Shown here: piece after piece, positions 1 through 23,853 of the stretch | Layout: every line of letters starts with the position of its first letter | How positions within the stretch are numbered: the first letter of the stretch is position 1 | Origin: Trypanosoma brucei | Lineage: Eukaryota | Length of the DNA: 64,000 nt | Assembly (NCBI GenBank): GCA_000002445.1 | Contig: CP000067.1 | Coordinates: 608,001 to 672,000 of the forward strand | Direction: 5' to 3' | Made by a program: the position numbers and the translations under genes | Notes under the pieces: generated by a model | The model's database searches: none | Told to the model about the DNA's origin: nothing | What the model saw: the letters and a program-made list of their open reading frames with translations, nothing else

Positions 1-22
1 CTTTGTTCTTCAGGTGAAAACA

Positions 23-397: not shown

Positions 398-399
398 AG

Positions 400-610: not shown

Positions 611-836
611 ATCCGGCATGATGTTGTTGCTGGCGTACGGGACCGAGGAATTTCCCCTTCACACAAACGTGAGAAGCGAATCGTAAGGAAAGGACGGACC
701 CATCCGCTGGAAAAAAAACAGTTTATTTACTTACTTTATTTGTAGCTCATAGAGAACAAAGGAAGAGAAGGTGCGACTCGGCACTGGAAGGAGTTGTTGC
801 AACTGAGACGAAATAACTCAAAAAAGGTATCCTATA

Positions 837-1799: not shown

Positions 1800-2166
1800 T
1801 GATTAGCTTTCAACTGAATGGTTGGTTGTTTCTGCGGGCTAGCGGTGTGTATGCGAACAAAACTCTCCATCCTCACACGCATATATACGCGGGCGGGCAC
1901 ACACTCGATGTGCCCGAGGATGCGACGACGGGGGAACGAAGTGAGTATATATTGGTTTTTTTTTGTGTGGTGGGGAGCTGGAATGGGTGCAGGACCAACC
2001 AGATTTATTGCGCAAAGAGTTGAAGCGAGTTCTCTTACCTGTTTTTGTTCGCTGTCTACGTTCCCGTTCACTTCACGCTTCGCCATCGGTGTTGGCACCT
2101 ACATGCCATGTTAAATGGTTGTCTTGGTTGTTAAGATACGGATCAGCGCGCTCACCTATTGTCCCC

Positions 2167-3156: not shown

Positions 3157-3539
3157 GTAAGGGGCGTACTTTATTGGGTGAATGATCATGTGGACGGACT
3201 GTTAGCGACGTAAACAACTTGTGAGTTTGAGGTGTTTTATACGCGGCGATTCTGCTCCTTTTTTTTCCTTCTGTTCGACGAAAACAAATGTTGTGTGTGG
3301 GGAACACACCTCAGAAAAGGAGGCGGAAGGACAGGTAGGAAAACCAGTGCATAACAGAGACGGTTTGTGTGTGACCCCCGCTGCTCTGCATGCGAAGCAG
3401 TATGGAATCTGAGGAAAAGTATTATCCGGTTCTTAAAGAACAGGAGATACGCGGGAGGAAGAAACGGCCTCTTCGCAAGGGGTTCAGATGAATCAATACC
3501 TGTTTGCAAAAATATATATATATATATCCTTATTGTAAC

Positions 3540-3650
3540 CGTCTTACCCTCTTTCTTTTTTTTTTGGGGTGGGGGGGAGGGGACCCTTTTCTTTATATCC
3601 TTTATTTTCTTCGTTCCCTCTCCACTTCTGGGTCACTGCAAGGTTAGAGG
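3540..3650 (+). promoter_or_regulatory. Polypyrimidine tract plus AG upstream of the 3657 gene.
   Basis: The run cttaccctctttcttttttttttgg...ttcgttccctctccacttctgggtcactgcAAG lies just 5' of the ATG at 3657. Confidence 0.45.
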
Positions 3651-3656
3651 GAATCC

Positions 3657-5375: not shown

Positions 5376-5460
5376 AACGAATTGCCGGCTCCATTTCTAT
5401 GTGCTTGCCGTTACATTTCCTCCCTAAATATTTCACGTAAACCTGCACTCGAACGCACAA

Positions 5461-5540
5461 TTTTTTTCTTCTTTGTGCTCAATCATTGTTTTGCTTGCTG
5501 GGAAGTGCTTTGTGTGTGTCTGTCTCTCTTTCTCTCAGTA
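5461..5540 (+). promoter_or_regulatory. Polypyrimidine tract ending in ...ctctcAG, upstream of the EHD-like gene.
   Basis: C/T-rich (tttttttcttctttgtgctc...tctctctttctctcag), about 290 nt 5' of the ATG at 5831. Confidence 0.45.
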
Positions 5541-5830
5541 AGTTTTGCGACATTGGCGTGTACAGTGGTTGCACTGCCACCCCCATTCACCAACGACAGC
5601 GTTCGTTTTGCTCGTTCATCTGCCTTTTCGGATGTGGATTTGTTTATGGCACAGTGATACCTCCAATAGGGGCATTTCGTTAATAATCTCTTTTTATTTA
5701 TTTTCTTTCCTTTCTCCTTCTTTGTTGACCAACGTAAAGTAACAAGTAGCAAACAGAGGGACGCATAGTGTCACATCGCGCGGCTGAAGAAAACAGTAAA
5801 ATAACAGCATAACGTGTTTTACTGCACCTC

Positions 5831-7705: not shown

Positions 7706-8235
7706 TTGTTTGCTTGTGGTATCCGCAATGACATGCGCGTCTGGTAAGTGCTCAATAGTAATAAGTCCTGTACCTCTTTCAAGACAACTTGGTGCAATAA
7801 TGGCTTCTCCTCCCCTGGTCATAATGAACGTGTACCAAAGGTGATGAGACTGCCCAAAAAGAAAAAAAGAAAAAAGAGGCAGTATAAATATGGCATTACA
7901 GCTGTTTTTTCCCCCCCTATGCAGCAGCTTTCTACCATTGTGTAAGGAAGATCGGAAATGCGAGATCTTCACGCAAGTGTATGCGGTCGTGATGAAGTGG
8001 ATGCGATAGGGAGGGTTTCCCACTCTCCCCAATAACAACACTGTGAAAAGGTGTTTTAACTTGCTCTAATTTCTCTTTGCAACTTTCTACGAGCAGCCGT
8101 ACGCTGTTTCCGTGGGCGTGTAAAATTTGCGTTTCTGATGGGTTTCAACCATATATTTCACTTGCTGAGCATCGACTCGCCTTTATTACCATCTATTACC
8201 TCAACCATTCTGCTGGCGTTGTTGTGTTAATGTTT

Positions 8236-8330
8236 CACTTTTTTTTTTTTGTCGGCACCGAATGAGACGCGCTCTTCGAGGCATTAAAGGTCATTTCCTT
8301 TTCTCTCCTTTTTTTTCTTCACAACCTTTG
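8236..8330 (+). promoter_or_regulatory. Polypyrimidine tract upstream of the DEAH helicase.
   Basis: T-rich and C/T-rich (tttcactttttttttttt...ttctctccttttttttcttcacaacctttg). Confidence 0.4.
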
Positions 8331-8566
8331 CACATGCACATATATATTATATCATTATTATTTTTTTTTTGCATTGGTGGCGCGTGTACAAACGGTATTC
8401 TCCTTTATGTGAACATGGGAATAAGGAAACTAAGCTCCCCCGATTGTCCGCTACTGTAACGGGTGGACCCTCACCAGAGGAACGGGAGGGGAGGGACGAG
8501 ACGGTTGGGCGCGAGAAAAAACAAAAAAGAAACGATATATAAATTCCTTCGTAGCACCGTGAGTCA

Positions 8567-10795
8567 ATGGAAGGTACAAATAGCGGTAATGAAGGAAGTA
8601 GCGGGGGACAACGATTTGTGAAACCGAGATGGGAAAACCACTCAACATTGCCCACCGCCGTAACAAATAACAGCAACAACGACAAGAATAGTGGTGGTGG
8701 GGGTGGACATTCCACACGTGAGGAATCTTCGGCTATGTTGCCTAAACTAAACCCATTTACGAAGAAGCCATACACACCGCAATATTACAAGATCCTTGCT
8801 CAAAGGACTACGCTTCCCGTGTACCAGAGAGCAAAGGAGCTTACTCAAAATGTGCGTGACCACCAGGTTGTACTCTTTGTGGGTGAAACAGGAAGTGGTA
8901 AAACAACGCAAGTGCCACAGTTCATATCAGAGATGGAATTACCAGGGGTTGTTGTTTGTACACAACCGCGTCGTATCGCTGCAATGTCTATTGCTGTGCG
9001 GGTTGCCGCTGAAATGGATGTGCAGTTGGGTGAGGAGGTAGGTTACCGCGTGCGATTTAAGTCTATGGTATCTGATAAGACAAAATTGCTTTATATGACA
9101 GATGGTATGCTTTTGCGTGAGGCCTTTTCGGACCGCGATTTGTCACGGATTTCAGTAGTTGTTGTGGATGAGGCTCATGAACGTACGGTCGAAACGGATG
9201 TGCTTCTTGGGGTGTTGCGTTTGCTTATGCAACGCCGTCAAGACTTTAGGCTCGTTGTCATGTCTGCGACGCTTGACATGGAGAGGTTTCAGGCGTACTT
9301 TCCGAAAGCACCACTCATACAGGTGGAGGGCCGCATGTATGATGTTCAAGTGCTTTACTCTACAGTACCGGTGAAGGATTATGTGGAAGCTTGCGTGGAA
9401 CGTGTGTGTGATATCCACTTGAACGAACCACCTGGCGATATCTTGTGTTTTCTCACCGGTGAGGCAGAAATTGAAAGAGCTGTTTCGCGCACGAAGTTAA
9501 AACTTGAGCATCTTCTTGCCGATGATGGAAACACGGTGTCTAGCAATGGTGCCCAGTTGCTTGCAAGGGTCTTACCACTGTATGGTTCCTTGGGCGTCGA
9601 TGACCAGGGGCGTGTGTTTTCTAACGCTGGCAAGAACACGCGGAAAATTATTTTTGCAACAAATATTGCCGAAACATCGTTAACTATCGACGGGATTGTA
9701 TACGTGGTGGATTGTGGATACCACAAACAGAGTTTGTACAACGCGGAAGCCCGCGTCGACTACCTATTACCCGCTGTTATCAGTAAAGCTTCGGCAGAGC
9801 AGCGGAAAGGTCGTGCGGGCCGTACTCGTCCAGGGAAGTGTTTCCGACTTTTTCAACAGAGTGACTTTTCCTCTTTCCCTAATCAAACTCACCCGGAGGT
9901 GCTGCGTTCCAACATGATCAACACTGTACTTTTGCTGCTGAAACTTGATGTTGCCAATCCATACCAGTTTGCCTTCATTGATCCCCCATCGCAGCAGAGT
10001 GTTATGGATGCGTATTGTCAACTCAGTCTTTTCGGGGCTGTAGACGACGACTTACAACTCACGGACTTTGGGCGTCTGATGGCCGATTTTCCCGTGGACG
10101 CCTGTTTGGCCCGTGTGCTTATGCGTTCCGCGCAATACGGCTGTGCAGCAGACGCAGCGGTTATAGTAGCGATGTTAGAAACGAGGAATGTGCTGGTGCG
10201 CCCAGCATCCCGTGGGATCGAGGCGGAGCAGAAACACGTGATGTTTCGTCATCCTGATGGCGACCATTTGACTCTCTTTAAGGTTTTTCACGCTTTTTGG
10301 CGTAGCGGCCAGTCCTCGCAGTACTGCTTCGATAACTTCCTTGCCTATCAAGCGCTGCAGCAAGCGGTGAATGTGTATACTCAGCTTACCAAGTTGATGA
10401 AGAAAAAAAACATTTGTTTTGTGTCCACGTATGATGACAGGTCGGGAAAACTGGACTCCGTGGCGATCCGGAAAGCGGTACTTGAGGGATTCTTCACTCA
10501 AGTGGCGTATAAACCACCCGGTGGAGAGCTGTACAAAACTGTAAGGGACTCGCAGATGGTTGCACTTCACCGCCACTCGTTCCCTTCAATGAGCGGATCC
10601 CCGTCTTGGATTGTATACGACCGACTTGAGGTGCAGGGGCAAGGTGGTACGTTTATCCGGGTGGCGTCTGCAATTGAGCCGGAGTGGTTGCTCGAAGTTA
10701 GCGACTTTTTTAATGACACGTCAGAGTTTGGGGATGGTGAGATCTGCCGCATCCTCCAGGACCTGAAAGCGGGGGGCACAACACAAAAGGGATAA
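8567..10795 (+). CDS. PRP43: DEAH-box ATP-dependent RNA helicase, Prp43/DHX15-like.
   Basis: Motif I is GETGSGKTTQVPQF; motif II is VVDEAHERT; SAT is SATLD; motif VI is QRKGRAGRTRPGKCFRLF. HA2 and OB-fold regions follow. The 742 aa length with a short N-terminal extension fits Prp43/DHX15 better than Prp2, Prp16 or Prp22. The symbol is tentative. Confidence 0.88.
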   Translation: MEGTNSGNEGSSGGQRFVKPRWENHSTLPTAVTNNSNNDKNSGGGGGHSTREESSAMLPKLNPFTKKPYTPQYYKILAQRTTLPVYQRAKELTQNVRDHQVVLFVGETGSGKTTQVPQFISEMELPGVVVCTQPRRIAAMSIAVRVAAEMDVQLGEEVGYRVRFKSMVSDKTKLLYMTDGMLLREAFSDRDLSRISVVVVDEAHERTVETDVLLGVLRLLMQRRQDFRLVVMSATLDMERFQAYFPKAPLIQVEGRMYDVQVLYSTVPVKDYVEACVERVCDIHLNEPPGDILCFLTGEAEIERAVSRTKLKLEHLLADDGNTVSSNGAQLLARVLPLYGSLGVDDQGRVFSNAGKNTRKIIFATNIAETSLTIDGIVYVVDCGYHKQSLYNAEARVDYLLPAVISKASAEQRKGRAGRTRPGKCFRLFQQSDFSSFPNQTHPEVLRSNMINTVLLLLKLDVANPYQFAFIDPPSQQSVMDAYCQLSLFGAVDDDLQLTDFGRLMADFPVDACLARVLMRSAQYGCAADAAVIVAMLETRNVLVRPASRGIEAEQKHVMFRHPDGDHLTLFKVFHAFWRSGQSSQYCFDNFLAYQALQQAVNVYTQLTKLMKKKNICFVSTYDDRSGKLDSVAIRKAVLEGFFTQVAYKPPGGELYKTVRDSQMVALHRHSFPSMSGSPSWIVYDRLEVQGQGGTFIRVASAIEPEWLLEVSDFFNDTSEFGDGEICRILQDLKAGGTTQKG

Positions 10796-11196
10796 TGCTT
10801 TTTTTTTCTTTTTGACCAGTGGTGTTGCATCCTTATTCTCTCCCACGTCTTTCCCTTCTCGTTTTCCCGCCGAATTCACCATGTCATGACGAATATGTGT
10901 GAGACCACATCCGCTGTTGTGTGGAGGAGACCGGTGGAATAGGAGGATGATAAAAATTGTATGGGGAAGCAATCCGTGTCTCAACATAAAGTAACCAAGC
11001 AAGAAACAGAAACAGTTCGATCGACCCGAGCTGCACTTGTTATGGCAAACATGATGCCACTATTTTTGTTTCAGGTTAATCTATCCCTTCGTTTTCCTTT
11101 TTGTGCTTCGTTCTGTGAAATATCTACTATAAACTGGGTATACTCTTTCATTCTTATTTCTCCTTCCCCACCTATCGTTCTTCGCATAGCGCAAGC

Positions 11197-14100
11197 ATGG
11201 AGGGAGAGCGTGGCCGCAATAGCCAAAACCAAAAGTTGGGGCTGGAACTGGTTCATGATGACGGGCGACCCATCGCCTCATGTCCGATTGACATGAATGA
11301 ACTGCTGAAGAAGATGGGGAAAACAGTAGAGGTGAAGGAGGGCGTTCGCGTCCGTTTGGAGGAATATAACGAAGATGAGGGTCTTTACTACTCTGAAGAC
11401 AGCTGGTCCGAGGAAAGTGAGGAAGAATCTCAAAGCGAGGAAAATGATAGTGCGGAGGACATTGCGGAAACACCTCCTCCAGGGTGTCGCAGAGTGGAAG
11501 ATTGGAACAGTGCTGTTAGGGCAACACAGCGAGGAGAAAAGCCACCGATGGTGCAAGCATCCGGAATTCTTTCACGGTCCCCCAAACACGTCAAAGAGAA
11601 GGGTACAGCAGATATCAAAGCAGGACAGATTCCACGTCGGGAGTTATGGGTTTCACGAGCGCCACCCGCAGATACCGAAAGAACGTACAAGCGGCTCCAG
11701 ACAGTACGACTCATGCCCTGTCCAACATCGCGTCGCTTTTGCCTTCCACCACTGACGTTTCACGCCGCAGCATCTTATACAGGGAACGCCGCCCGTGGCC
11801 CACGAATGCTTGTGTACGGCGGCACAACAAACCTCGGCAAAACTACCGAGAACGAGCTGTACGAGTTCTCGCTATTGTCTGGTGATTGGCGTCGGGTGGA
11901 GGGAAAGCAGTCCCACTCTCCTGGCGTGTACGGGCATACCGCTGTTGTGTTGAAGAAGCATCGGCGTGTCGTCTTGACGGGAGGCGTAGGCTATGGTGGC
12001 GTCCCTCCCGAGCCTTTGGAGTCCCTTACGGACGACTACCGCAGAGCGCGCTTTCATCTCCTTTTCCCCCATAAAGAACCTATTCAATCCAACGCGCAAG
12101 CAATACCGGAAACCGTGGCCAATACGGAGTTGCCAACGTTGTGGACTCTAGCCCACGCAGCGGAGTCGGTACCAACCTTTGGTTTTCTACCGGTGATATT
12201 TGACGTGGACCTGAGAACCCGCAGGTGGCGCACTATCGAGACAAGCCCTAAACTTCCTGTCGTCTTCCATAGTGCCGTTGCTATCGGGACCAGGCTATAC
12301 ATCTTTGGGGGTATGAATACCCATCTTCAGGTTTCTTCACAGTTGATCCTTGTTGATGGTGAGACCTATAAGATTTCTCTTATTCCCCCATCCACCGACC
12401 CACCCAAAGCTCGCTTCCTACACTCCGCTGTCGTTTACGCTCATTGGATGATTATTTATGGTGGGTTCGATGCCCACAACCAACCGTTAGACGATGCGTG
12501 GGCCTTTGATACGGTAAATGAGCGTTGGGAACAGCTTCATTGCCACGGGTCGCATGCCCGTGGTGCTCACGCTGCGTGTGTTGTGGGTTCGCGGCTAATT
12601 GTAGTGGGAGGCTTCGACAGCAGTTTTGATGGTGATGAGGCTCCCGCCAGCACTTGCCTTGAGCTCAACCTTATTCCAAATCATGAGGATAAACATTTAT
12701 GGAGACCTCTCCCTTTGCATCCGACGGTTCCACCCGTGGCGTTTGCAGCGGTGTGCCCGTGTGGAGACGACGCATCTTTCCTTCTTTATGGCGGCTGCAT
12801 AGCTGCCAAAAAAGGAGATGACTCCAAAAAGGCACAAGGAGGCGGAGGAAAGTCACCAGGGCGTGGAAGGCATACGAATAGCGGGCATACTGGCTATAGC
12901 GACTGCATAGGTGACGACGGCGACAATTTAACTATCTGGAAGCGGCTCGTCCCATCGAATGAAGGTTTCCTCCTCACGTTTCCTGTGAAGCGCCCAGAAA
13001 AGAACAATGAAGGAGACGCTGAGCCCCGTTACAACGCGCTGGGGGTGGAAATTGATCCTGATGAGGTACCGGCGGAGTTTCTGGCGTTTGTGAAGCGGCA
13101 ACATGATTTCCTCCTGAAGAAAACCGGGAACGTTGAACAGACAATGAAGAAGATATTCCTTGAAGAGCGCGAAAGCATGGAGCCACATCTTTACCTCACC
13201 CCTGATGAGGTAGAAAGGCTGATAGAAGAGAGTGAGGAGTTATGCACGCGGTTTAGTGAGTATAAGATGGAGGAACTTCCACCTCACGTGCCCGAAAGGC
13301 AGCTTCGGTTGCACCTCAATGAAGAATGTGTTTCACTCAGCCGGCAAGTGAGAGACGTAATAAAGTCCATGAAGGGGAACCCCGCTGCCGCCGCTGCTGT
13401 GAAGTCAAAGACTCATCGGTTTAAAGTAGGACAGAAGTTCGAGAGTCACTCAGCGCCGAAACCATTCCGTCGTGTTGTTATCATGTCACTCATGAAAGAA
13501 ATAAAAAGAAATATCAAGCGGGTGCTCTTATCCAACAAGGCTCTGAAGACAGTAGAGTGGCCAAACAAGGCAGAGTACCTTGAAGCTATTCGAAGAATGC
13601 AGGAGACAGCGGATACTTTTCTTCTTTCCGTGAAGGAGATTCTCGACGTTTACATTGAGAAACGTGTGGATTCGCTAGTCAGCGCGATTGACACTCGTAA
13701 GAACAAGTTGAAGCGGTTGACAGAAGCCGTGGAGCGAAGCCGGCAAAGTTTTCCCGTTCACCCTCTGGATATTGTGGCAAGGGTGGGAGGGAGAGGGGGT
13801 CGGTCCTCTCCATCTCCGCAATCCATTAGCAGCCGTGCAAGGTCTCGCTCTCCGAGCGCAAGACACTTTAAAGGTGGCGAAGAAGCAACGCATACACTAA
13901 ATAAAGGAGAAGTTGGTGTTCTACTTAACAAGGCTTCTGCTGTGAGGACGAATGCTTCCCTATTCGGTGAGAGCTGTCAGTCAATGATACCACCGGCACC
14001 CAAGCAGGTGGCTACTGCGCTTCTAGTGCCCGGTATGACTCCTCCACCGGAAGGGGAAGATGCAGCAGCTTCCAGAGAAACTGTGTGGCATACAGCCTGC

Positions 14101-15600
14101 GGTCAGGTTCAACAAATTGTGAAGTGCGTCGATAGGTTCATTGAAGGTATTCGAGCCTCGCAATTAGAGCAGAAACCACTGAACGAGGCAGGAGATGGCA
14201 CAGAGGAGGGTTCATATAGAGTGAACCTGGCCCTTGCAACAGTTTGGCCGTTGGAAACATGCAAGGACAAACTTGATGAATTAAAAAAGGGCATGCCCGA
14301 GGTCCGCAATCCCTCACCTGCAGCTGGGGGTGATGAGGCTGCAAAGCTAAAGAAAACGCAACAACATTATACTCGGCTTTCAAAGAGCCTTACTGCTCTC
14401 GTGCAGAGTGTCAAAATGAGTATTCTCAGTAGAGCCGGGGCGAAACCACCGCCAGCAGTTCACATCACCTCGCGGGATGTTGTGGCAGCCAGTCCTTCAT
14501 CAAAGGGAAGGGCATGGAGACCCCCACAATCCAGACGGCAAAGGTCCACTATAGAGGTGCTGGACTTACATGCTGATGACGCCACAGAGCCTGAAGGATA
14601 TTCGCCCACTGCTGAGGAAGAGCAGCGTCATTGTCACGCTGTACTTTCACCACTTAGCCCCAAGCTCGTTCCGATCGAAGATTTATTTGCCTCACCGAGG
14701 ACCGCACCTGCCGTGGAGGCCCCTAATCGGATACCGATAACTTCCAGGGAGGCTGCCGCGCTCGTGTCAGCACCCCAAGCGGCGGTTGCTGCAACGGGTG
14801 AATGTGTTATTGTACCTTCCAAGAAGGATGTTAGGGTGGTGAAAAACTCATCGTCGGCATCACTGCTTTTTCATGAAGGTGATGACACCAGCGCTGCGAT
14901 GCACTCCCGCCTCTTTCCCCCTCAGGCATACCACGACTATTATGCGGCGGCGGCGACGCCACAACAACCGACGTGCATTGCTGTTTCCAACGGGCCGAAG
15001 ATGGTAGCAGCTGGAGAAAATCGCAGCTCCGATGCGGTGATATCACTTATAGACGTTTTCGACGGTGTACATCCGGTGACAGTGACTGACGAAGGGAAAC
15101 AAGACTTAAAGGCGATGGTGAGTGTTACCCCAGGGTTCTTCCACGCGCACCCTTCTGCGGTTGACACGGGTACATCCGAGACATCCGATCATGTCAAATA
15201 CTGTGACTCTCCGATGCTTGAGGATGATTACTTTTTCTTTGGTCGCCGTCTTGAGTCCAGTTGTTTGCCTACGGGCCCCGTCCAACCCCTTTCTACACCC
15301 AGTGCTAAGGGCACTACGAGGAAAAAGACTCAGAAGAGAGAACCATCAGTTAAACTGGCAGCCAAAAGCAGGACACGTGACACTAAATCATCCCCTCACT
15401 GCCTGTCGTTTTCAGCAACCCCTCTTCGTGACAGCAAGCGCCGCTCAGTTTCACGAGGAGAGCGCGCAGTCCGTCAGTTGATGGAGCCCGACTCTTTTGC
15501 TCGAGGCGGCGGTGGCGGTCCCTTACGCGGGAAGTTAACACCTGGAGAAGCACGAATCGCGGAGGCGAGGAAACGTGGCAGCCTCATGTCTGGTAGTTAG
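11197..15600 (+). CDS. Large Kelch-repeat protein (N-terminal beta-propeller) with a long disordered, Ser/Arg- and Pro-rich C-terminal region.
   Basis: Several kelch-like blades are present (LVYGGTTN..., RLYIFGG, MIIYGGFD, RLIVVGGFD, LLYGGC) within roughly 11800-12800. The rest is a 1467 aa ORF containing RS dipeptides (SRARSRSPSARH) and low-complexity tracts. Confidence 0.8.
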   Translation: MEGERGRNSQNQKLGLELVHDDGRPIASCPIDMNELLKKMGKTVEVKEGVRVRLEEYNEDEGLYYSEDSWSEESEEESQSEENDSAEDIAETPPPGCRRVEDWNSAVRATQRGEKPPMVQASGILSRSPKHVKEKGTADIKAGQIPRRELWVSRAPPADTERTYKRLQTVRLMPCPTSRRFCLPPLTFHAAASYTGNAARGPRMLVYGGTTNLGKTTENELYEFSLLSGDWRRVEGKQSHSPGVYGHTAVVLKKHRRVVLTGGVGYGGVPPEPLESLTDDYRRARFHLLFPHKEPIQSNAQAIPETVANTELPTLWTLAHAAESVPTFGFLPVIFDVDLRTRRWRTIETSPKLPVVFHSAVAIGTRLYIFGGMNTHLQVSSQLILVDGETYKISLIPPSTDPPKARFLHSAVVYAHWMIIYGGFDAHNQPLDDAWAFDTVNERWEQLHCHGSHARGAHAACVVGSRLIVVGGFDSSFDGDEAPASTCLELNLIPNHEDKHLWRPLPLHPTVPPVAFAAVCPCGDDASFLLYGGCIAAKKGDDSKKAQGGGGKSPGRGRHTNSGHTGYSDCIGDDGDNLTIWKRLVPSNEGFLLTFPVKRPEKNNEGDAEPRYNALGVEIDPDEVPAEFLAFVKRQHDFLLKKTGNVEQTMKKIFLEERESMEPHLYLTPDEVERLIEESEELCTRFSEYKMEELPPHVPERQLRLHLNEECVSLSRQVRDVIKSMKGNPAAAAAVKSKTHRFKVGQKFESHSAPKPFRRVVIMSLMKEIKRNIKRVLLSNKALKTVEWPNKAEYLEAIRRMQETADTFLLSVKEILDVYIEKRVDSLVSAIDTRKNKLKRLTEAVERSRQSFPVHPLDIVARVGGRGGRSSPSPQSISSRARSRSPSARHFKGGEEATHTLNKGEVGVLLNKASAVRTNASLFGESCQSMIPPAPKQVATALLVPGMTPPPEGEDAAASRETVWHTACGQVQQIVKCVDRFIEGIRASQLEQKPLNEAGDGTEEGSYRVNLALATVWPLETCKDKLDELKKGMPEVRNPSPAAGGDEAAKLKKTQQHYTRLSKSLTALVQSVKMSILSRAGAKPPPAVHITSRDVVAASPSSKGRAWRPPQSRRQRSTIEVLDLHADDATEPEGYSPTAEEEQRHCHAVLSPLSPKLVPIEDLFASPRTAPAVEAPNRIPITSREAAALVSAPQAAVAATGECVIVPSKKDVRVVKNSSSASLLFHEGDDTSAAMHSRLFPPQAYHDYYAAAATPQQPTCIAVSNGPKMVAAGENRSSDAVISLIDVFDGVHPVTVTDEGKQDLKAMVSVTPGFFHAHPSAVDTGTSETSDHVKYCDSPMLEDDYFFFGRRLESSCLPTGPVQPLSTPSAKGTTRKKTQKREPSVKLAAKSRTRDTKSSPHCLSFSATPLRDSKRRSVSRGERAVRQLMEPDSFARGGGGGPLRGKLTPGEARIAEARKRGSLMSGS

Positions 15601-16427
15601 CGGAGCGCCAGTACCGGGTAGAATGCCGAAATAAGAACTGTAGGAGAGGGGAGTTTGAATGCCCATTTTGCCTGGACTAAGCCCCTTAACCATAGAACAT
15701 ATGATATAGAGCATTAAATAAGGCAAGTGGTTTTTCGCTATTGTCTTTACTTAAAACTACCTTCCCACCCTTACCCTACTATCTGTTGGCTTTTCGGGTG
15801 TGGGTTTCTTTTCTTTTCTTATCAAAATCTTATGCCGCGCACCGAAGGGTTATTCGTGCTGAGGTGCGCGTTTTTTGATGTCGTCTCGTCCGTCCGAGGT
15901 ATGATTTCTGGGGGTTCCCTTCGTTAGGAACTTCAGTAGATCAAACAACGCTTTGACTTCAGGAGTGCACAAAATTCATGCTGTCAATCTCTTGTGCGAA
16001 AGGGACATCCTGAGAAGGTTGCTCCCGTTTCGTAGGGGACGGGGCTATGACGCTCTGTGCATCTCTCAATACTATTGCCTCATTTCCTACTGAATTTACA
16101 TAGTTTTACTTCTCTAATTCCTATTTTATTTACTGCCTCTTTCTGCGCCTGTACAAAGGCTCCCGTACCGTAGCGCAAAGGTGTTCCTTTGTCGCCGTCC
16201 CCGGAAAGAAAAAAAAGGGAGAAAGGAAACAAAGCGGAACAAAAATAAAAAGGAAGAACAAATAAGAAATAAGGGGAGCTAATAGAGCAAACTACACATC
16301 TGTGTGCCACGAAAGCGACACCATCATCAATAGTCGTCCTGATTTTCTTCCCCTCTCTTTTTCCCGCAGAGGTTTGAGGGTTTTGGTGAAACTGTCCGGA
16401 GGGGGAGGTGGGCTCTTGTAAGCGCGC

Positions 16428-16430
<3 letters not shown>

Positions 16431-16458
<28 letters not shown>
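16431..16458. repeat. (TA)14 microsatellite.
   Basis: A perfect TA dinucleotide run immediately after gcgcgcgaa; intergenic. Confidence 0.95.
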
Positions 16459-16461
<3 letters not shown>

Positions 16462-16604
16462 TACAGATATACGTTTGCACGTACACGTAACGAACAGGTC
16501 GAGGGAGACCTTTAAGTATATCGAGTAAGCGTACCTGAGATACAAAAGCAGAAAAAAAAAAGAGAGTCCGAAGTGGAGGTAACGTACCGCGGAAGGTGAG
16601 AGCC

Positions 16605-19600
16605 ATGGGGTTTTGGCCGCGTTCCTTACTTGCCAGAGACTATGAGGTACCGAAGCGTCCCATTTTCCACCTCGAAGGATGGGATGTGGTTCAGGGAACA
16701 GACGCAGCCACTTACGTTTCGGGTGTTGTGCCCGACGGCGTTATGTACGGTACCAACGGGTGTTTAGGCGTACGGCATCATTGTGAGTCGGAAACGGTAG
16801 GGTACCGAACAAGTCTTTACATGAACGGCGTCTACCACAGTGCTCCCCTTAACGCGTACGTTGACAGTGAAGCGCTGCCAGAAGAGATTCAAGTTGGTGC
16901 CACCGTATGTGAAGTGACTCTCGACTGCTTCATTGATGGAGAGTCTGGGACCCTTGGCGAGGCACCATCGCAGAGGTTGAACTTGCGAGACGCCACGTAT
17001 TCTAGCACCAGCGTGGATGTTGTCAGCGGTGACGGTGGGCTTACTTTTGACTCCACATATCGCCAGGTTGTATCTTTGAACGAGTTGGACCTCTGGTGCG
17101 CTGAGACTGTATGCACCAACTTTTCCATCGACGCCTTGTCGAGTGGAACAGATTTTGCTTCACAAAACAATTCCGAGTCCTCAGCAAAACACATCGAAGA
17201 GGACATGTACAGCACTGAGTCCTCTACTTATTCTGTTGTTTTTATCGTTTCTGTTACTGTATCGCTGGATGACTGGTATCTTGTGGGTGGTGACTCCACG
17301 GAAAAACTGCTCATCGAATCCACCACGTCCGGCATATTGGTAGGCACTGAAACGGAAGCCTCATGCACAGTAGAATGCGGCGACCGAACATACAAGATAG
17401 TCCCGGAGCAACAAGTGAGAAATGTTCCGGAGGACTTTTATACGCCCCACCGTGATTGCGGCTTCTCCCATGCAGCGTACGTAAGCGAAAGCGAGAGTGA
17501 GCACCCACACTCTTCCCGTGCCGCTTGGAGAGGCACCTCCGGCTCGCGGGGTCGTGTATGCTTCCAAAAACAGTTCCCCTATACAATTACCCCCGACAAC
17601 GTGCCTCAAAAGGTAACGTTGAGCTTTCATGCACGACATCACAATGGGGGGCTTCCACTTTCGCGGCCGTTTCCGTCTTTTGCGGATGTCGTGGCCGAGC
17701 AACGTCTCGTGTTGGACAATTTCTGGAGTACCTTTTGGATTGATATCCAGCGACAGGACGAACTGCCGCCTAATCGCATGAAACTTGGCCTAATATTTAA
17801 TTCGTTTCGGTTGTTCTGTGTTTCTCGCAACCTGCAAAACGGCCTGCCACAGGCTGGCTGCTCAACAACTAAGAGTAATTTGCTGTATGACCTCCAACAG
17901 TACGTTTACCATGGCATCTACTATATTCTCACGTCGCCATCAAGTGCGCTTGCGCTCCTTCGCAGCCTCTATTGTATGCTTTCTCAGGCTCGAATGAACG
18001 CCCTTCGTCTATCGCTTGAACACGGCGCCGTATACCCACGCAGAACGATCACAGGGACGGAGTGTTGGCATTGTAGTACCCTCAACAACGCCCGGTTTCA
18101 CGTCAATGCTGAGGTGGGCTATATAATAAATATGTATTTTTCTGCCGTGGAAAGCATTGCCACGAGCGATCGCTTGTGGCTGTTGGAGCTCATGTTAGAG
18201 ACAGCACGTGTTTGGTCGCAAGTTGGGGAGTGGGTGGAAAATGAAGGTGTGTTTCGTTTGGACAATATTGCCGGCCCGGATGAGTACAACGGTAACGCGG
18301 CAGGGAACTTTTACGTTCACCTCTCGGCAAAGCTACATTTGAGAAATGCTTACAATCTTTACGAGGAACAACAAAAAATCGTTGGTGATGAAGCTATATT
18401 TTGTCTGCTGCAGGGAATTAACATGGACATATCGGAACTTGAAAACTTCAGGACCATCTCCAACGAGATTGTTGTGCGACGTGACAACCACCTTGATGTT
18501 TTTTTGGTGCATGATCACTTTGACACACTGAAAGAATGGAAGGGGGAGCGTCCAAAGCACCCCTTGTCCATGAACTACCACCCTCTTGCAATATACCGTC
18601 ATAAAGTTGTGAATATTCCCGAAGTCCTTCTCGGCATGTTGTTGTACCCAGCCGAGTTTGAGCGAAAGGATTTGCTGCAGAACTTGTCCTACTACGCCCC
18701 GCTCTGCACGCATGACTCGGCGGAGTCATTGGCTATTGTTGCGTGTGTGGAGTTCCGAGCGAACGGTCGCTTCACTCACGGCATGCCGCTACTATGTTCA
18801 TTGGCTAGCTTGGATTTAGATAACATCATTTACGCTGCCGACGAAGGACTTGATTTTGGTGCCATGTCCGCAACGTGGATTGCCGTTGTCATGGGTATTG
18901 GTGGTGTTAAGATCACGTCTCGTAGTCTGCATTTAGACCCTTCCTTTCCCGCTGGGTTGAGTGTACTTAGTTTCACTCTGCACTGGCGTGGGGCGACCCT
19001 GCGGACGCGTGTAGAGAAGGACTGCATAACGTATGACCTGATGGCAGGGGATAGCATACGATTTATTCATGCCAGCAGACATCGCATCCATTTGCATTCC
19101 GGATGCAGGCAGAGCGTCGCCCGCAAGCAAGTCGCTATACCGCAGCCCATGAGCAGCATGCATGGGGAATTTGCCGGTGCCATTTTTTTGTGCGAGACGC
19201 TTTTTGACAGCGTCATGGAGATGAACTTCATTGCGTGGGGCAAGACGCTGGAGTCACTCTATGAGAACTATCGGGCGCTGCACCTCCGCCACATCCCACC
19301 GCTCACAGCGGAAGAGTTCGTCGATAAAGTTATTTATCAGGCAGAGCACCGTGAGATTGCCTTCAGTGGGATTCACAATGTGCTACTGGACCGTGGAATA
19401 GACCTCCCACTCGGTTCACCCGACGATGCCGAAATTGTAGAGACGCGTTATGGTTTAGCCAACGCCAAGGTGGCAGAGTTGGAGGAGATGTGGTCTCGCG
19501 AGGCACCGTGTGTGAATCCAGCGATGCGGGCATTGCTGCGCGATTTGGAGGATAATGGAATACCGCTTGCGCTTGTGTCGTACAGTCGAACCCTTAAGAC

Positions 19601-20051
19601 ACTGATGCAGTATCATCCAGAGGAGGCACTGCGTTTCCTCACGGCTATTGATGGCGATGAGGCGCATGAGCGGCACATCAAGAGCCGACCGCATCTCGAC
19701 ATTTTCGTTCGTGCAGCCGAAAAGATCCACGTGGAGCCGAGTCGTTGTCTGATCTTCTCTTCTCACATCGACAGTAACTTCAAAGTGTCGGAGCTCTCTT
19801 ACTTCCGCATGGTGTTTGATGTGGAGGATCCCTTTGCGGCGCGGGTGCGGGGATCCAAAACCTGCGAGTATCCCTCCATGCTGAGGCCCGCAGCGGCTGA
19901 TGGGGATGTGCGGCCACTTGTGATTAACTTGAAGCGGGATAAGTTTCCCACAACTGTAGACGGGTTGGAAAGCATTTTATGCGGCCCAGTGGCGTCGGGT
20001 TCTGATCTCGCCGCTGCGGGCGATGCTCCGCCAAGTGATCCCTGCAGTTAA
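16605..20051 (+). CDS. Large protein with a C-terminal beta-phosphoglucomutase-like HAD domain whose catalytic motifs are degenerate. The N-terminal roughly 850 aa may be a glycoside-hydrolase-family-65-like phosphorylase region (unverified).
   Basis: The ORF track starts at a GTG (16596); the first ATG is at 16605. Residues encoded around 19160-19800 align well with Lactococcus beta-PGM, for example [11 protein letters not shown] against [11 protein letters not shown] and [20 protein letters not shown] against [20 protein letters not shown]. However, HAD motif I DxDGV is CETLF here, and motif IV ED is SS. Calling the N-terminus GH65 is an inference from a GH65 plus beta-PGM pairing I recall from bacteria. 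Confidence 0.75.
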   Translation: [1148 protein letters not shown]

Positions 20052-21407
20052 GGAAAGAAAGAAAAAGAAGGAGGAGGGGAAAAAAACGCAAGGATGGAAG
20101 GGGCTTTGCTTTCCTTTTTGCCTTCCGACTAAACCCTCTATCCTTGCGTTTTTTCTCCCCTTCCTTCTTTTTCTTTCTTCTCTCTGTATACTCGCTTTTC
20201 CCTCGTCACACACGCCTTACACATGCAGGATACGTCAGTCGCAGACGGTCAAACAGCACCGGCAAGATTAGAGAGTGTCTTCGGTGATTGACCGAAAGGA
20301 CGAAAGAAAAAAACGCAAAAAAAATCCACATTAAAGAGACGGAAGAATGGAGAGAGAGAGAGAGAAAAGGGGCGAGTGAATATATCAATAAATGAAGTAG
20401 AGTGGGATTGAGAAATAATATTGCCTCGGCTGGTCAATGTGCATAATAAGGAGCGTAAATGAATGAAGAAAGGAATGGGAAACGGGATGTGTTAACTCCT
20501 AAAGGTGTAGATAAGAAAGGTGTGAAGTGTGTCTGTGTGTGTTTGTGTACGTGGGAAGGATGCACGAGAAAATATATGTGAATTGATTCTCCCCTCCTTT
20601 TCTCCCATTTGGCCGTAACGAAAGGAAACGCAAGACGAAACAAATAAAGGGTGGAGAACAAAAAAAACCGAAAGCAACATTAAAGACAACAATAACGATG
20701 GCGAAGTGTATCCTTCACAACTGTCTTCCATTTTAAATTCACCTATTTTTGTTTTATGTCAAGGTAAATTATAAACATGAGAGGGGAAAAAACAATGAGA
20801 ACGTGCGTATTTTTATTGGTTTCTTTTACCGTTTCAAGTGTCAGCAAGCGGATGACACGACTCCCAAGTTGCAAAGTAGAGGGGAATGGTAATAAGCGCA
20901 TTACACTTTACAGCGCGTGTAAGAAACGGGAAAGCAGAAGAGGAAGTCTTTTTTTTTTTTAAAGAAAAAACAAAACAGAAAACAACGGGAAGCAAAACCA
21001 AAAGTTATTGCGTCCGAATATGTGTTAATTAGTTGAATGGGAAACCCCGCTTTTGTGTTTGGCCGTATTTCAAAATGAAGAACGGCGTACCTCACACCAT
21101 GAGGGTTTTTTTCTTCTTTTTTTGTTTAAATTTTTTAAAAAAAGGTTCCGCAAAACGAAGTTATTTACGTATTATTCAACGGGTAAAACGGTGAAGGGGA
21201 AATTAATTTTAAACAATAAAAAGATTTCATGAAGAAGTGAAAGGAAAGAGGGAAAAGTAGAAGAGGCGGTAAGATAAAGTCATTAGTTTGTGTGTGCGTG
21301 TTTTTTTTTTCCAATTTTTCGCTCTTGATTCATTTGACTTTTTCGCGCTTCACCGTGGCTTTTATCATTATTAATTGATTAACCTTCCTTTCGGAAAATA
21401 ACATGTG

Positions 21408-21419
21408 CCCCCCCCCCCC
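21408..21419. repeat. C12 homopolymer.
   Basis: Twelve consecutive C in the long intergenic region. An 11-nt G run occurs at 26706-26716 and a 12-nt C run at 37190-37201. Confidence 0.9.
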
Positions 21420-22559
21420 TACGGGTCTTAACGGGACGGTCACCGAAAAAAAAAAAGAAGGGAGGAATGATGCCGAAAACGAAGGGGTATGGCGCGATTC
21501 CATAGACCCCAGTTTGCCGAGAGAAGTTTCACTTCGCATCATATTTCAGGTTGTGTGTTTTTTTTTTAATTTTCGCTTCGGATCGTCTTTTTTTTTTCCC
21601 CCTCCCCTTCCACAACTCTTTTTCACCTTCACACCTTTCATTCTCCCTTAAAGCTCTTGTCCTTATCAACATCTAGTGCTACACATTTGATGGTGTGCTC
21701 TAACCATACTCCATTTATTTATTTTTGATTTACTTCTTCATTTTCGTTTACGTGCTTAATTTCACTTTTTTTTCCTCATTCCATTCCATTCCATTTTTTG
21801 TTTTGTTTTTGATTGTTTGATACGTGATTTTGAGTTGTTGAGAAGAAGAAGTGATGGTGAGTTGAAGCGACGCCAGTGTGGTGGCATCCGCTTTTTTTCT
21901 ACACGTTTGTGCCTTCGTCTAAAAAAAGAAAAATGTGTTTGATTATCGGTTCACTTATTCCAGCATTTGACATCTTATGTATGCCTTATTTGTTGTTGTT
22001 TTTTCTTTTATTATTTTCCTTTCGATTTGAAAACTGCTATTTTATTTTTCTATTTTATTTTTTTTATTTTGCATTTTCACTTGTACTGCTATTTCCCCTT
22101 CCCTTCCTCTAACTTGAGTGCTGGCCTTTCAGCTACCCCTGGGGGAAAAAAAAAGAAATAAACGGTGAAGTTTGGGAAGGGGGTGATGAGAACCAACCTT
22201 CAGTATATATATATATATATATCTTTTTTTCTATGTTAGTGTTTACTTTTTTATTTCTAGTTGATGTGCATGTCCTCTCTTTTATCTGTTTTTTTTTTAT
22301 TTACCATAAAATCTCCAAAGTCAGCTGCTACCGTCAATCTTCCCTTATCTCGAGTAGTTTGAGGAAGAATAGAAATGCCCTTCTTAAAGCAATTGAGTGG
22401 GATTTCTGAAAAGTGAAATTAGCGTGAGACAGCTCCAGTAATTATTATTATTATTTTCTTCTTCAATCCAAGTGTCGTTTCACGTCATGGAGTGGGGCGA
22501 TATCAGCCGCGGTTGTTGCGCTCCACTTCTTCCCTCCATCTTCCTGCTTTCGCTTGAAT

Positions 22560-22640
22560 TATATCTCTCTTAACTCATCCTACTTCCTTCTTTTTTCCTT
22601 TCCTTCTTTTTTCCTTTCCTTTTCTTCTTGACGTAAGTTT
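22560..22640 (+). promoter_or_regulatory. Strong polypyrimidine tract followed by AG dinucleotides, upstream of the candidate small membrane-protein gene.
   Basis: The run tatatctctcttaactcatcctacttccttcttttttcctttccttcttttttcctttccttttcttcttgacgtaAG. Confidence 0.45.
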
Positions 22641-22694
22641 TCCCAATATTCGCATCAAGTAGGTAGTAAGTTCTACCTATAGTATTAAGAGATT

Positions 22695-23117
22695 ATGACT
22701 CTTGCGGATACGCTACACCCCGTCTTCGTATTTATTCTCATCGTTAATGCCGTTTCCTGTGCATTTCCATTACTTTCACACCGTCTTGTGTTTTACCCCA
22801 TCGTGTTTGTGGCTCTCGGCCTGCTCTACGTGACTCTGCTGGTCTTACTAATGGGTGCAACAGTTATGATGCGAAATCAATCCTTTAGTGACCATCGTGT
22901 GAAGGAAAATACTCTCATAATAATTAAGCGAGATGTGAACATGACAACATGGATGGTGATATCAACTGTAGTTATGGTTGCTTGGATGTACTGCTGGGCC
23001 CGTCGCGTGTGGTTAGTGTATATTCTTCCCATGGTGGAGGAGTACAATGCGTTCAAAAGTCGACGTTGGGCCGATGCATTAGACTTACGGGGTCGTATGA
23101 AGCCGACTGTTTCATGA
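22695..23117 (+). CDS. Candidate small multi-pass membrane protein (140 aa).
   Basis: The ATG at 22695 lies about 60 nt downstream of a strong polypyrimidine tract (22560-22640) with AG dinucleotides. The protein has 3-4 hydrophobic helices (VFVFILIVNAVSCAFPLL, IVFVALGLLYVTLLVLLMGA, WMVISTVVMVAWMYCW). No homology recognised. It sits at the end of a 2.6 kb ORF-free stretch. Confidence 0.4.
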   Translation: MTLADTLHPVFVFILIVNAVSCAFPLLSHRLVFYPIVFVALGLLYVTLLVLLMGATVMMRNQSFSDHRVKENTLIIIKRDVNMTTWMVISTVVMVAWMYCWARRVWLVYILPMVEEYNAFKSRRWADALDLRGRMKPTVS

Positions 23118-23623
23118 TTGCAACTACATTTCTCCATTTGTGGTGGCACGTTGGTTTGAAATTGCCGCGGCTTTTGTGCATGTGTGCATGTGTATGTGTT
23201 GTTTGCATCCATCGCGTCATTGTGACCGAATATACGAAAAGGGCACTGTAAATGAAGAGTGGGGAGTGGCATTAGTGGCGGGTGTCCACAGAAATTTGTT
23301 GTGCACCGCGCTTCTCTGGTTGAGCACTTCTCCGTGAAGTTTTGGAACTAATTTGCTTTCCTCATTTTCTTCCTCGTTGGTGTTTCGTTGTCAAATGTTT
23401 CTTTTATTTCATATACCATTTCTGCTTATTGATTTCGTTAAGTTCAACATTTCGCCGCAAAGACGACGTTAGGTTTTTTGGGGCGGCGAAACTCAGGGTG
23501 ATCATTGGAGGTGTGACGGTGCCAAAAAGTAACCTTATTTTTTTGTCAAGCGGAGACCCTCTAACTCAGGCGTACTGGACACGACATTCAGGTGTGGAAG
23601 TGCACTTAATAGAGTACGCGTTC

Positions 23624-23665
23624 ACACACACACACACACACGCATATATATATATATAATATACG
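23624..23665. repeat. (CA)9 followed by (TA)n microsatellite.
   Basis: The sequence cacacacacacacacaca...cgcatatatatatatataatatacg lies between the candidate small membrane-protein gene and the EEP gene. Confidence 0.9.
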
Positions 23666-23853
23666 TATTCAGTAAGTGATCAACAGCAACGCTGTGGTAC
23701 GCCACCCGCCGCTTCGGGTTCTCCGTGAGAGCACTGATACCCACAAGTAATAAAAGGGTTGACATATCAAACATCGTCGTCTCTTACGCTTTTGCCTCCA
23801 CTTCTTCGTTACCTTCCGCTTCTGGAAGCAGCAGATCGGTGAGCGTGGCGCGA

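Follow-up and report, generated by a model that had tools for sequence, protein, structure and literature searches.

Does the fusion protein encoded by Tb927.4.2410 of Trypanosoma brucei still work as an enzyme, or has it been kept for another purpose? The gene lies in the window analysed here, a stretch of 64,000 nucleotides (contig CP000067.1, positions 608,001 to 672,000 of the forward strand). The earlier note on this DNA had recognized a C-terminal beta-phosphoglucomutase (beta-PGM)-like HAD domain with all catalytic motifs degenerate and guessed that the N-terminal part might be GH65-like. The open reading frame is real: it runs on the forward strand from an ATG at 16605 to a TAA at 20051, comprises 1148 codons plus the TAA (1148 amino acids), and contains all three peptides quoted at the time. 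A GTG lies in frame upstream of the ATG, at 16596; the starts of the orthologues match the ATG. Gene identifier and TriTrypDB product name were taken from PMC7952579, the sole paper found that names the gene, which places it among up-regulated transcripts. Our literature search found no biochemical, localisation or phenotype data on Tb927.4.2410. Its domain-level annotation is already known; a description of degeneracy in both its GH65 and its HAD part was not found in the searches made.

The protein consists of a GH65 module that fills the N-terminal ~845 residues, followed by a beta-PGM-type HAD domain at residues ~846-1085 and a short tail:

16605..20051, + strand: complete coding sequence of Tb927.4.2410, GH65-like/beta-PGM-like fusion (open reading frame list, codon check)
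16605..17669, + strand: GH65 N-terminal beta-sandwich-like domain, residues 1-355 (sub-threshold Pfam Glyco_hydro_65N, all-beta model, Foldseek)
17670..18899, + strand: GH65 barrel region (Pfam Glyco_hydro_65m, hhalign, profile match to PDB 1h54)
18900..19139, + strand: GH65 C-terminal beta-sheet domain, residues 766-845 (Pfam Glyco_hydro_65C; beta strands 769-846 of the model)
19140..19859, + strand: beta-PGM-like HAD domain, core and helical cap, residues 846-1085 (8h5s match, Foldseek, hhalign)
19860..20048, + strand: poorly conserved C-terminal tail, residues 1086-1148 (species comparison, model pLDDT)

Profile and structure searches bore out the GH65 guess. Pfam Glyco_hydro_65m matches residues 439-758 (E=2.5e-42, 145.6 bits, cut-off 27) and Glyco_hydro_65C scores over its gathering cut-off of 22 (E=6.1e-10, 39.2 bits); Glyco_hydro_65N, at residues 50-254, stays under its own of 26.6 (E=3.9e-4, 20.6 bits). 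The N domain holds two low-complexity, low-confidence inserts (residues ~181-203 and 280-312). Aligned with canonical GH65 proteins by hhalign, the barrel gives E=2.1e-88 over 388 columns, and the profile of the Tb927.4.2410 family matches PDB 1h54 at E=3e-35. With the AF2 model (pLDDT 88.7, pTM 0.89), Foldseek matched the entire GH65 chain to 6w0p and 1h54 at a target-normalised TM of 0.83-0.84, in alignments ~880 columns long against GH65 phosphorylases of 751 residues (TM 0.84). By sequence and by fold, Tb927.4.2410 is a member of CAZy family GH65. With the bacterial phosphorylases compared (L. brevis maltose phosphorylase 1H54, kojibiose phosphorylases 6W0P and 3WIQ/3WIR, and glucosylglycerol phosphorylase 4KTP) it has in common the N beta-sandwich, the helical linker, the (alpha/alpha)6 barrel and the C beta-domain (TM 0.79-0.84), as well as the catalytic-acid loop G-x-D-E-Y; it differs from them in the large N-domain inserts and the attached C-terminal HAD domain.

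The similarity of that HAD domain to beta-PGM is far beyond chance. Searched against the PDB with phmmer, the C-terminal 308 residues match 8h5s, the beta-PGM Rv3400 of Mycobacterium tuberculosis, at E=2.6e-12, and Foldseek finds the same entry (E=6e-10, TM 0.72, 22 % identity), the closest solved structure to the domain. Comparison of 30 family members with 33 intact fused beta-PGM domains by hhalign yields a probability of 99.8 % (E=6.6e-30, 213 columns), without gaps across motif I. The NCBIfam model PGMB-YQAB-SF matches under its curated cut-off (E=3.9e-10), and the beta-PGM family cut-offs are not reached (TIGR02009, 40.2 bits against 153.35; TIGR01990, 25.5 bits against 189.4). In the AlphaFold model the domain has a Rossmann-like core (strands 858-862, 988-991, 1013-1015, 1048-1052 and 1069-1073), the first strand of which is followed by a C1-type helical cap (helices 870-965), and it shares with Rv3400 the core strands and a cap motif around 'ETxYGLxNxK'.

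Are the residues that make GH65 proteins enzymes still in place? In the numbering of CsKP, a review lists F342, W343, D344, E483, K596 and Q597 as common to all GH65, and K330, which is the phosphate-binding Lys, S631, S632 and H675 as shared by phosphorylases and transferases (PMC11442529, Table 2); the subsite -1 residues have been called 'completely conserved' by Nakamura et al. (PMC8626586). We counted these sites in 32 members of the Tb927.4.2410 family and in 126 other top GH65 matches, where each canonical residue occurs in 122-126 of the 126. The corresponding positions in T. brucei are as follows:

17853..17855, + strand: A417, at the phosphate-binding Lys (CsKP K330; hhalign register)
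17889..17897, + strand: D429-L430-Q431, at subsite -1 F342-W343-D344 of CsKP (profile-profile alignment, MAFFT)
18282..18284, + strand: E560, at the GH65 catalytic acid (LbMP E487/CsKP E483; alignment to 1h54)
18612..18617, + strand: N670-I671, at the subsite -1 Lys-Gln (CsKP K596-Q597; gapless alignment anchored on YRH...(D/E)V)
18717..18722, + strand: S705-A706, at the phosphate-binding Ser-Ser (CsKP S631-S632; alignments, hhalign)
18852..18854, + strand: D750, at the phosphate-site His (CsKP H675; alignments, hhalign)

Five of the six universal residues are replaced in T. brucei, and those five (F, W, D, K and Q of subsite -1) are replaced in every family member. The Trp, present in 124/126 other GH65 proteins, is L, F, M or V in the family; phmmer sets the D429-L430-Q431 register two residues earlier, and under no register is a Trp kept. 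At the Lys-Gln positions, where the other GH65 proteins have K (125/126) and Q (122/126), the family has D/Q/N/E/A and V/I/L/T/F/M. The phosphate site is affected in the same way, with only the first Ser (S705) kept and three of four residues replaced in T. brucei: the Lys (122/126 elsewhere) is S, A or G in the family, the second Ser has given way to Pro in 27 members and to Ala in two, and the His (125/126 elsewhere) is H in 18, D in seven, N in four and R in three. The phosphate site of the phosphorylases and transferases is thus incomplete, and the position of phosphorylase Y337 is S425. By these alignments, the GH65 barrel is without the glucose-binding residues of subsite -1 and, presumably, the phosphate pocket.

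The sixth universal residue, the catalytic acid, survives as E560. Glu occupies this position in 126/126 other GH65 proteins and in 27 of the 32 family members, with G557, D559 and Y561 invariant around it. The five exceptions are L. pyrrhocoris (Q), Phytomonas (T) and three environmental members (R, A, A); in FjGH65A, a change from E to Q at the equivalent position left less than 0.1 % of the activity (PMC8626586). GH65 hydrolases (human PGGHG 9SD4-8, the F. johnsoniae alpha-1,2-glucosidase 7FE3 and fungal acid trehalases) have the same fold as Tb927.4.2410 (TM ~0.70-0.75) and likewise miss the phosphate site. They are much more distant in sequence (PGGHG, E=7e-4, versus E=6.6e-25 for the phosphorylase 1h54). 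Their subsite -1 retains W, D, K and Q, and a general-base Glu, FjGH65A E616/PGGHG E574, is conserved among them where the phosphorylases have the phosphate site (PMC8626586). All four subsite residues are absent from Tb927.4.2410, and the family has no conserved Glu between residues 705 and 750, a stretch that may include the counterpart of this general base.

The catalytic motifs of the HAD domain have fared similarly:

19188..19199, + strand: L862-C863-E864-T865, at HAD motif I 'D-x-D-G' (alignments, hhalign, model)
19578..19589, + strand: S992-Y-S-R995, HAD motif II (alignments, family counts)
19686..19688, + strand: R1028, at the HAD motif III Lys (beta-PGM K145; alignments, hhalign)
19758..19763, + strand: S1052-S1053, at the HAD motif IV acidic pair (beta-PGM E169-D170; alignments, hhalign)

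In the AlphaFold model, strands 858-862, 988-991 and 1048-1052 terminate at the residues of motifs I, II and IV, as is usual for HAD domains. Motif I had been read as CETLF; it is degenerate, as claimed, but the register was off by one, and the counterpart of 'DxDGV' is L-C-E-T-L, beginning one residue upstream. The nucleophile Asp (D8) is therefore L862, the Asp+2 (D10) E864 and the Gly T865. Across the 32 members, the nucleophile position is L in 26, T in two and Q, S, M or V in one each, and never Asp. D8 and D10 are both replaced in T. brucei, with an acidic residue surviving at Asp+2 (E in 17 members and D in 15, with D in Leishmaniinae). Motif II departs from the claim that all motifs are degenerate: its Ser/Thr is retained as S992 (S in 19 and T in 13 members), and the position of beta-PGM K117 is R995, an Arg in 31/32. 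The replacements proposed for motifs III and IV were correct. R1028 takes the place of a Lys that is found in 29/30 intact fused beta-PGMs, the family having R in 23, Q in seven and P in two; S1052-S1053 replaces a pair in which E and D each occur in 29 of 30 intact fusions, and which in the family is S/A/G/L and H/S/T/M/C/D. An invariant Asp, D1056, lies three residues beyond S1053.

The T. brucei losses (D8 to Leu, K145 to Arg, E169/D170 to Ser-Ser) are conserved across kinetoplastid orthologues, in that the canonical residues are gone family-wide (30 members). By the aligned motifs, the HAD domain lacks the nucleophile Asp and the Mg2+-binding acidic residues. A few anion-binding positions persist in its pocket: Ser/Thr992, Arg995, Lys955, Arg/Gln1028 and Glu/Asp864.

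The gene is nonetheless strongly conserved. Between T. brucei and T. b. gambiense DAL972 (P0001) there are 20 synonymous and four non-synonymous differences, the latter giving four amino-acid differences (pN/pS 0.06). Identity to L. infantum is 48 % in the barrel and 52 % in the HAD domain, the best-conserved part of the protein, and among 19 species 27-28 % of columns are invariant in barrel and HAD domain (HAD 28 %). Orthologues in T. vivax and on an environmental kinetoplastid-like contig (25 % identical) are syntenic. Purifying selection on both domains is strong. Across 30 members, conservation reaches at least 90 % at 125 positions, and about 60 such positions are specific to the family, for example H636, N657, P672, E673, D739 and N740.

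Since the key residues of both halves are lost and the protein is strongly conserved in kinetoplastids, it probably has a non-enzymatic job. We propose, with a probability of about 0.6, that Tb927.4.2410 is a conserved double pseudoenzyme that descends from a GH65 phosphorylase/beta-PGM fusion and now serves in binding or as a scaffold. Kinetoplastids did not invent the fusion: roughly one in four of the top-scoring GH65 relatives (29-32 of 126 top matches) carry an intact C-terminal beta-PGM. Intact fusions from bacteria-like metagenome sequences, among them P0038 (JGI name 'alpha,alpha-trehalose phosphorylase') and P0022, have the same domain order, are collinear with Tb927.4.2410 over both domains and share with it an extended cap segment, 'G-x-P-x-D-x4-E-T-x-x-G-L-x-N-x-K'. 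These intact fusions possess all catalytic residues (DxDG, S, K and E/D-D; K, W-D, E, K-Q, S-S and H), of which the T. brucei protein retains only E560, S705 and S992. A diplonemid relative (Flectonema) has all GH65 site residues. Rv3400 is an active stand-alone mutase required for trehalose use (bioRxiv 10.1101/2025.11.20.689507), unlike the T. brucei HAD domain, which is fused and has no nucleophile, Mg2+ ligands or motif III Lys.

On this reading, the ancestor was a bifunctional alpha-glucoside phosphorylase/beta-phosphoglucomutase, the first domain of which would have converted a disaccharide and phosphate to beta-glucose-1-phosphate, and the second beta-glucose-1-phosphate to glucose-6-phosphate. 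Kinetoplastids have lost both catalytic centres and retained both folds. The present protein would be expected to carry out no phosphorolysis, hydrolysis or mutase chemistry, and to have been maintained for binding a ligand or partner, or as a scaffold.

Alternatively, the GH65 barrel, with or without the HAD-like domain, might be a neofunctionalised enzyme that acts on a different substrate or through a site rebuilt around Glu560 and family-specific residues, which we consider unlikely. T. brucei and most members retain the Glu with the G-x-D-E-Y loop around it, as well as D704 and S705; residual or altered catalysis could account for this instead of structural constraint, and the family-specific positions of the well-conserved barrel could form a new active site. 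GH65 has, moreover, already given rise to hydrolases, phosphorylases and a glycosyltransferase (PMC11442529). Against such an enzyme speak the replacement of the acid in five members, two of which are trypanosomatid genome assemblies, the loss of all five other universal residues, the incomplete phosphate site, and the want of a conserved Glu, in the stretch from the Ser-Ser to the His, able to act as general base.

Every Trypanosoma sampled, like other trypanosomatids, carries a second, less degenerate GH65-HAD paralogue (T. brucei P0187, T. vivax G0UCW5 = P0065, T. cruzi P0191, Strigomonas P0078). It has the fusion architecture and lineage in common with Tb927.4.2410, is only ~20-23 % identical to it, and is degenerate as well (K-Q to R-x, K145 to R, acid Glu variable). 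Unlike Tb927.4.2410, it retains the subsite W-D and the His, the acid Glu in several species, a 'DGxDG' motif IV region, and the HAD D-x-D in T. cruzi, T. theileri, T. grayi, T. conorhini and T. rangeli. Since GH65 phosphorylases act as dimers, and dead paralogues repeatedly serve in trypanosomatids to activate weak ones, Tb927.4.2410 might heterodimerise with P0187 and regulate it. The AdoMetDC and deoxyhypusine synthase (DHS) prozymes are precedents for such activation (PMC5201418, PMC3663545), and Tb927.4.2410 resembles them as an apparently dead enzyme derivative that selection maintains in the same organism group. The prozymes have a demonstrated active partner and activation mechanism; unlike them, Tb927.4.2410 would have two fused domains dead at once. 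P0187, too, has degenerated in T. brucei (acid E to D, K-Q to R-I, HAD D8 to N), and we regard regulation of this partner as distinctly improbable. A broader version, in which the two paralogues, with both centres disabled in Tb927.4.2410 and most of those in the other, form a prozyme-type heteromer or a sugar or sugar-phosphate sensor derived from ancestral trehalose-type phosphorolysis, appears rather unlikely; if true, it would provide the first GH65 pseudoenzyme described, going by the searches made, and an unusual instance in which two catalytic domains of one fusion died together, yet stayed under strong selection.

Finally, the picture in the earlier note of a dead mutase as substrate-binding or regulatory appendage of an (implicitly) active GH65 phosphorylase, which the fold, the catalytic Glu and the better match to phosphorylases than to eukaryotic hydrolases would favour, is unsupported and very improbable, because the GH65 active site is degenerate too, with subsite -1 replaced in all members and the phosphate-binding Lys, second Ser and His replaced in T. 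brucei; we also know of no pathway producing beta-glucose-1-phosphate in trypanosomatids. Outside the two domains, the C-terminal tail shows 24-42 % interspecies identity and 5 % invariant columns, with pLDDT below 50 at residues 1137-1148.

The best-supported reading of Tb927.4.2410, judging from its sequence, is that it encodes a double pseudoenzyme retained for a non-catalytic role. The gene lies in the window as follows:

16605-20051, + strand: Tb927.4.2410 open reading frame, 1148 aa

The earlier note had assigned the C-terminal part to a beta-phosphoglucomutase (beta-PGM)-like HAD domain and had guessed at a GH65-like N-terminus; matches in Pfam, the PDB and Foldseek establish that both assignments were right. 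Of the Pfam models, Glyco_hydro_65m passes the threshold at aa 439-758 (E=2.5e-42), as does Glyco_hydro_65C (E=6e-10). Glyco_hydro_65N (E=4e-4) stays below it, and so does the HAD 'Hydrolase' family, matched at aa 950-1052 (E=1e-3). The beta-PGM subfamily model TIGR02009 of NCBIfam is matched at E=3.9e-10, far under its curated cut-off. Against the PDB, the N-terminal part finds maltose and kojibiose phosphorylases (1h54, E=6.6e-25) and the C-terminal part finds the beta-PGM 8h5s (E=1.7e-11; 2.6e-12 with the domain alone). The latter structure is M. tuberculosis Rv3400, an active beta-PGM required for growth on trehalose (bioRxiv 10.1101/2025.11.20.689507). In an AlphaFold model built from 68 sequences (pLDDT 88.7, pTM 0.89), the whole GH65 chain superposes on 6w0p and 1h54 (Foldseek TM 0.83-0.84) and the C-terminal domain on 8h5s (TM 0.72). 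A model from 19 orthologues, with a pLDDT of 57.6 and active-site loops below 50, was discarded. Databases already annotate this domain architecture, and fusions of GH65 with beta-PGM occur commonly.

Thirty members of the family (Tb927.4.2410 with its orthologues and relatives, here paralogue A) were aligned, profile to profile, with 33 intact beta-PGM domains from GH65–beta-PGM fusions. The alignment (99.8 %, E=6.6e-30) runs without a gap through motif I, where a 12-residue stretch of the family pairs with F-D-A-V-L-F-D-M-D-G-V-L; independent MAFFT alignments agree on this register, and in the AlphaFold model each motif position lies where its expected strand ends.

Table. HAD catalytic positions (beta-PGM numbering), the T. 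brucei residue and states in the family.
Nucleophile Asp D8: L862; L 26, T 2, Q/S/M/V 1 each
Asp+2 D10: E864; E 17, D 15
Gly G11: T865; C 12, S 8, T 7, A 5
Motif II Ser S114: S992, retained; S 19, T 13
K117: R995; R 31/32
Motif III Lys K145: R1028; R 23, Q 7, P 2
Motif IV E169: S1052; S 18, A 9, G 3, L 1
Motif IV D170: S1053; H 12, S 8, T 8, M/C/D 1 each

The suggestion that every catalytic HAD motif is degenerate thus holds for motifs I, III and IV, which are replaced, but not for motif II, whose Ser is kept as S992. Motif I had been read as CETLF; the loss of the Asp nucleophile stands, but the true register lies one residue upstream. A gene-model or alignment artefact behind the missing Asp was ruled out, given the gapless stretch, the conserved F-D-G-h-h-F and A-W flanks and the same picture in 30 sequences. 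On these residue states, canonical HAD phosphotransfer by the domain is excluded, because the nucleophile and the Mg2+ ligands are absent. The cap Lys K955, S/T992, R995 and R/Q1028 remain, and we therefore infer that some anion binding by the residual pocket is conceivable.

By its predicted site residues, the GH65 half is degenerate as well as the HAD half. A review of the family (PMC11442529, Table 2) lists two sets of functional residues in CsKP numbering, one for all GH65 enzymes and one for phosphorylases and transferases, and Nakamura et al. (PMC8626586) describe identical residues. The T. brucei states were derived by hhalign (E=2.1e-88) and MAFFT and compared with the 126 other best GH65 matches.

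Table. GH65 positions (CsKP numbering), the T. brucei residue and conservation in the comparison set.
All GH65, subsite -1, F342, W343, D344: D429, L430, Q431; W 124/126
All GH65, catalytic acid, E483: E560, retained; E 126/126
All GH65, subsite -1, K596, Q597: N670, I671; K 125/126, Q 122/126
Phosphorylases/transferases, K330: A417; K 122/126
Phosphorylases/transferases, S631, S632: S705, A706; S 124, then S 93 or T 30 (n=126)
Phosphorylases/transferases, H675: D750; H 125/126

In the W-D segment, phmmer pairs the motif with Y428-D429, two residues earlier, whereas MAFFT and hhalign pair it with L430-Q431; we adopted the profile-profile register, and in none of the phmmer, MAFFT and hhalign registers is the Trp or a family-wide Asp kept. 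It is possible, if rather unlikely, that a rebuilt active site uses the retained E560. Elsewhere in the family the catalytic Glu is replaced by Gln in Leptomonas pyrrhocoris, by Thr in Phytomonas Hart1 and by Arg, Ala and Ala in three environmental members, and in the F. johnsoniae hydrolase FjGH65A the equivalent E→Q exchange left activity at <0.1 % (PMC8626586). No conserved Glu was found in the family at the general-base region of the hydrolases, where the equivalent position was located approximately.

A profile word search added no sequences, whereas an exhaustive profile search of representatives found 3292 relatives, distant ones included, among which five groups can be told apart: intact fusions, diplonemid and protist forms, environmental paralogue B, trypanosomatid paralogue B and paralogue A. 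All catalytic residues of both domains are present in P0038 and in 29-32 of the 126 best matches. Both domain orders occur among intact fusions, beta-PGM–GH65 in P0198 (1079 aa, metagenome, Logan assembly) and GH65–beta-PGM in P0038. P0022 (1767 aa, Logan assembly), grouped with them, has an atypical phosphate site, with S-N and Q for S-S and H, and an N-terminal extension of ~620 aa. The diplonemid Flectonema neradi (P0037) and a protist transcriptome (P0035) retain all GH65 residues, the HAD D-x-D and the Lys and are without motif IV. Paralogue B, a second GH65-HAD fusion, has a nearly intact GH65 site in its environmental forms (P0036, P0039, P0042). Its trypanosomatid forms, including T. 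brucei equiperdum P0187 (1208 aa), T. vivax P0065 (G0UCW5), T. cruzi P0191, Strigomonas culicis P0078 and others, keep the W-D and His, change K-Q to R-x and HAD K145 to R, and vary at the acid position (D, G, N, E, M, T, I); their HAD motif I is often D-x-D, otherwise N-x-D or E-x-D. Paralogue A is the most degenerate of the five. It forms one cluster of 30 in a neighbour-joining tree of the barrel, where the midpoint root falls on its own long stem and no sister group is indicated. The series from intact bacterial-type fusions through the diplonemid with its intact GH65 site and paralogue B to paralogue A offers a system in which to study how a bifunctional enzyme may turn step by step into a pseudoenzyme. 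By analogy to the trypanosomatid AdoMetDC and DHS prozymes, paralogue B might be imagined as the partner of a prozyme-type pair, which we regard as improbable.

Tb927.4.2410 is not a decaying gene and is under strong purifying selection. The window comes from a strain other than T. b. gambiense DAL972: the product of the gene differs from its DAL972 counterpart (P0001) at four residues (V274A, A519D, S521N and S824N, window versus DAL972), and the 24 nucleotide differences between CDS 16605-20048 and DAL972 locus L002 1001-4444 comprise 20 synonymous and 4 non-synonymous changes (pN/pS 0.06). Trypanosoma and Leishmania share ~50 % identity, and the barrel (48 %) and the HAD domain (52 %) are the parts best conserved towards L. 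infantum; 27-28 % of their columns are invariant across 19 species. Between aa 356 and 1085, 125 positions are at least 90 % conserved among 30 members, about half of them family-specific. A protein of 1148 aa with two predicted dead centres and a pN/pS of about 0.06 points to a non-catalytic function, and the group that carries it counts major pathogens among its members.

The ancestral fusion would have run a two-step pathway, from disaccharide and Pi to glucose and beta-G1P and on to G6P. We infer that the double pseudoenzyme is inactive, its lineage having probably given up this pathway, and that it may have been kept for a binding or scaffold function. The earlier picture of a working phosphorylase joined to a dead mutase is very improbable, and the replaced GH65 subsite -1 and phosphate-site residues speak against it.

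Besides PMC7952579, which names Tb927.4.2410 in a list of up-regulated transcripts, a literature search found no paper mentioning the gene. Nor did it find a functional study of GH65 in trypanosomes or Leishmania, of GH65–beta-PGM fusions or of GH/HAD pseudoenzymes, or an account of both centres having degenerated together throughout the lineage under strong purifying selection, or of two such degenerate paralogues. Databases label the gene and its orthologues 'glycosyl hydrolase'; paralogue B carries that label or, from one source for Strigomonas, 'alpha,alpha-trehalase'. The residue-level evidence indicates that neither function should be assumed, and this bears on the metabolic reconstruction of trypanosomes and Leishmania; the chief use of our results is to correct functional annotation and to provide a lead for kinetoplastid pseudoenzyme biology.

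Every large ORF of the window is read from the + strand, which fits a trypanosome polycistron. Upstream are a dynamin-N/DUF5600 GTPase, a DEAH helicase and a 1467-aa Kelch-repeat protein, and downstream an Exo_endo_phos and a SET-domain protein; T. vivax has the same order (DEAH helicase, Kelch protein, orthologue, Exo_endo_phos, SET). Gene-order comparison gives the following syntenic block:

5831-20051: window
1-15435: T. vivax locus L003
2476-13810: JGI metagenome locus L001 (Ga0609846_1478)

In a metagenome contig of 49 kb, a family member with 25 % identity (P0034) is accompanied by dynamin-N/DUF5600 and Kelch genes in matching order on a single strand, so that the Kelch-to-GH65-HAD adjacency is kept even in this environmental relative. 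A perfect (AT)14.5 microsatellite occupies intergenic positions 16430-16458, ~150 bp upstream of the start codon, and just upstream of it (~16200-16400) a purine-rich run is followed by a pyrimidine-rich stretch. Between the CDS and the next large ORF lies an unusually long AT-rich gap of 3.7 kb (20052-23724, GC 0.39-0.43), which holds one short frame:

22695-23117, + strand: 140-aa ORF with several hydrophobic stretches

This frame may encode a small membrane protein or have arisen by chance.
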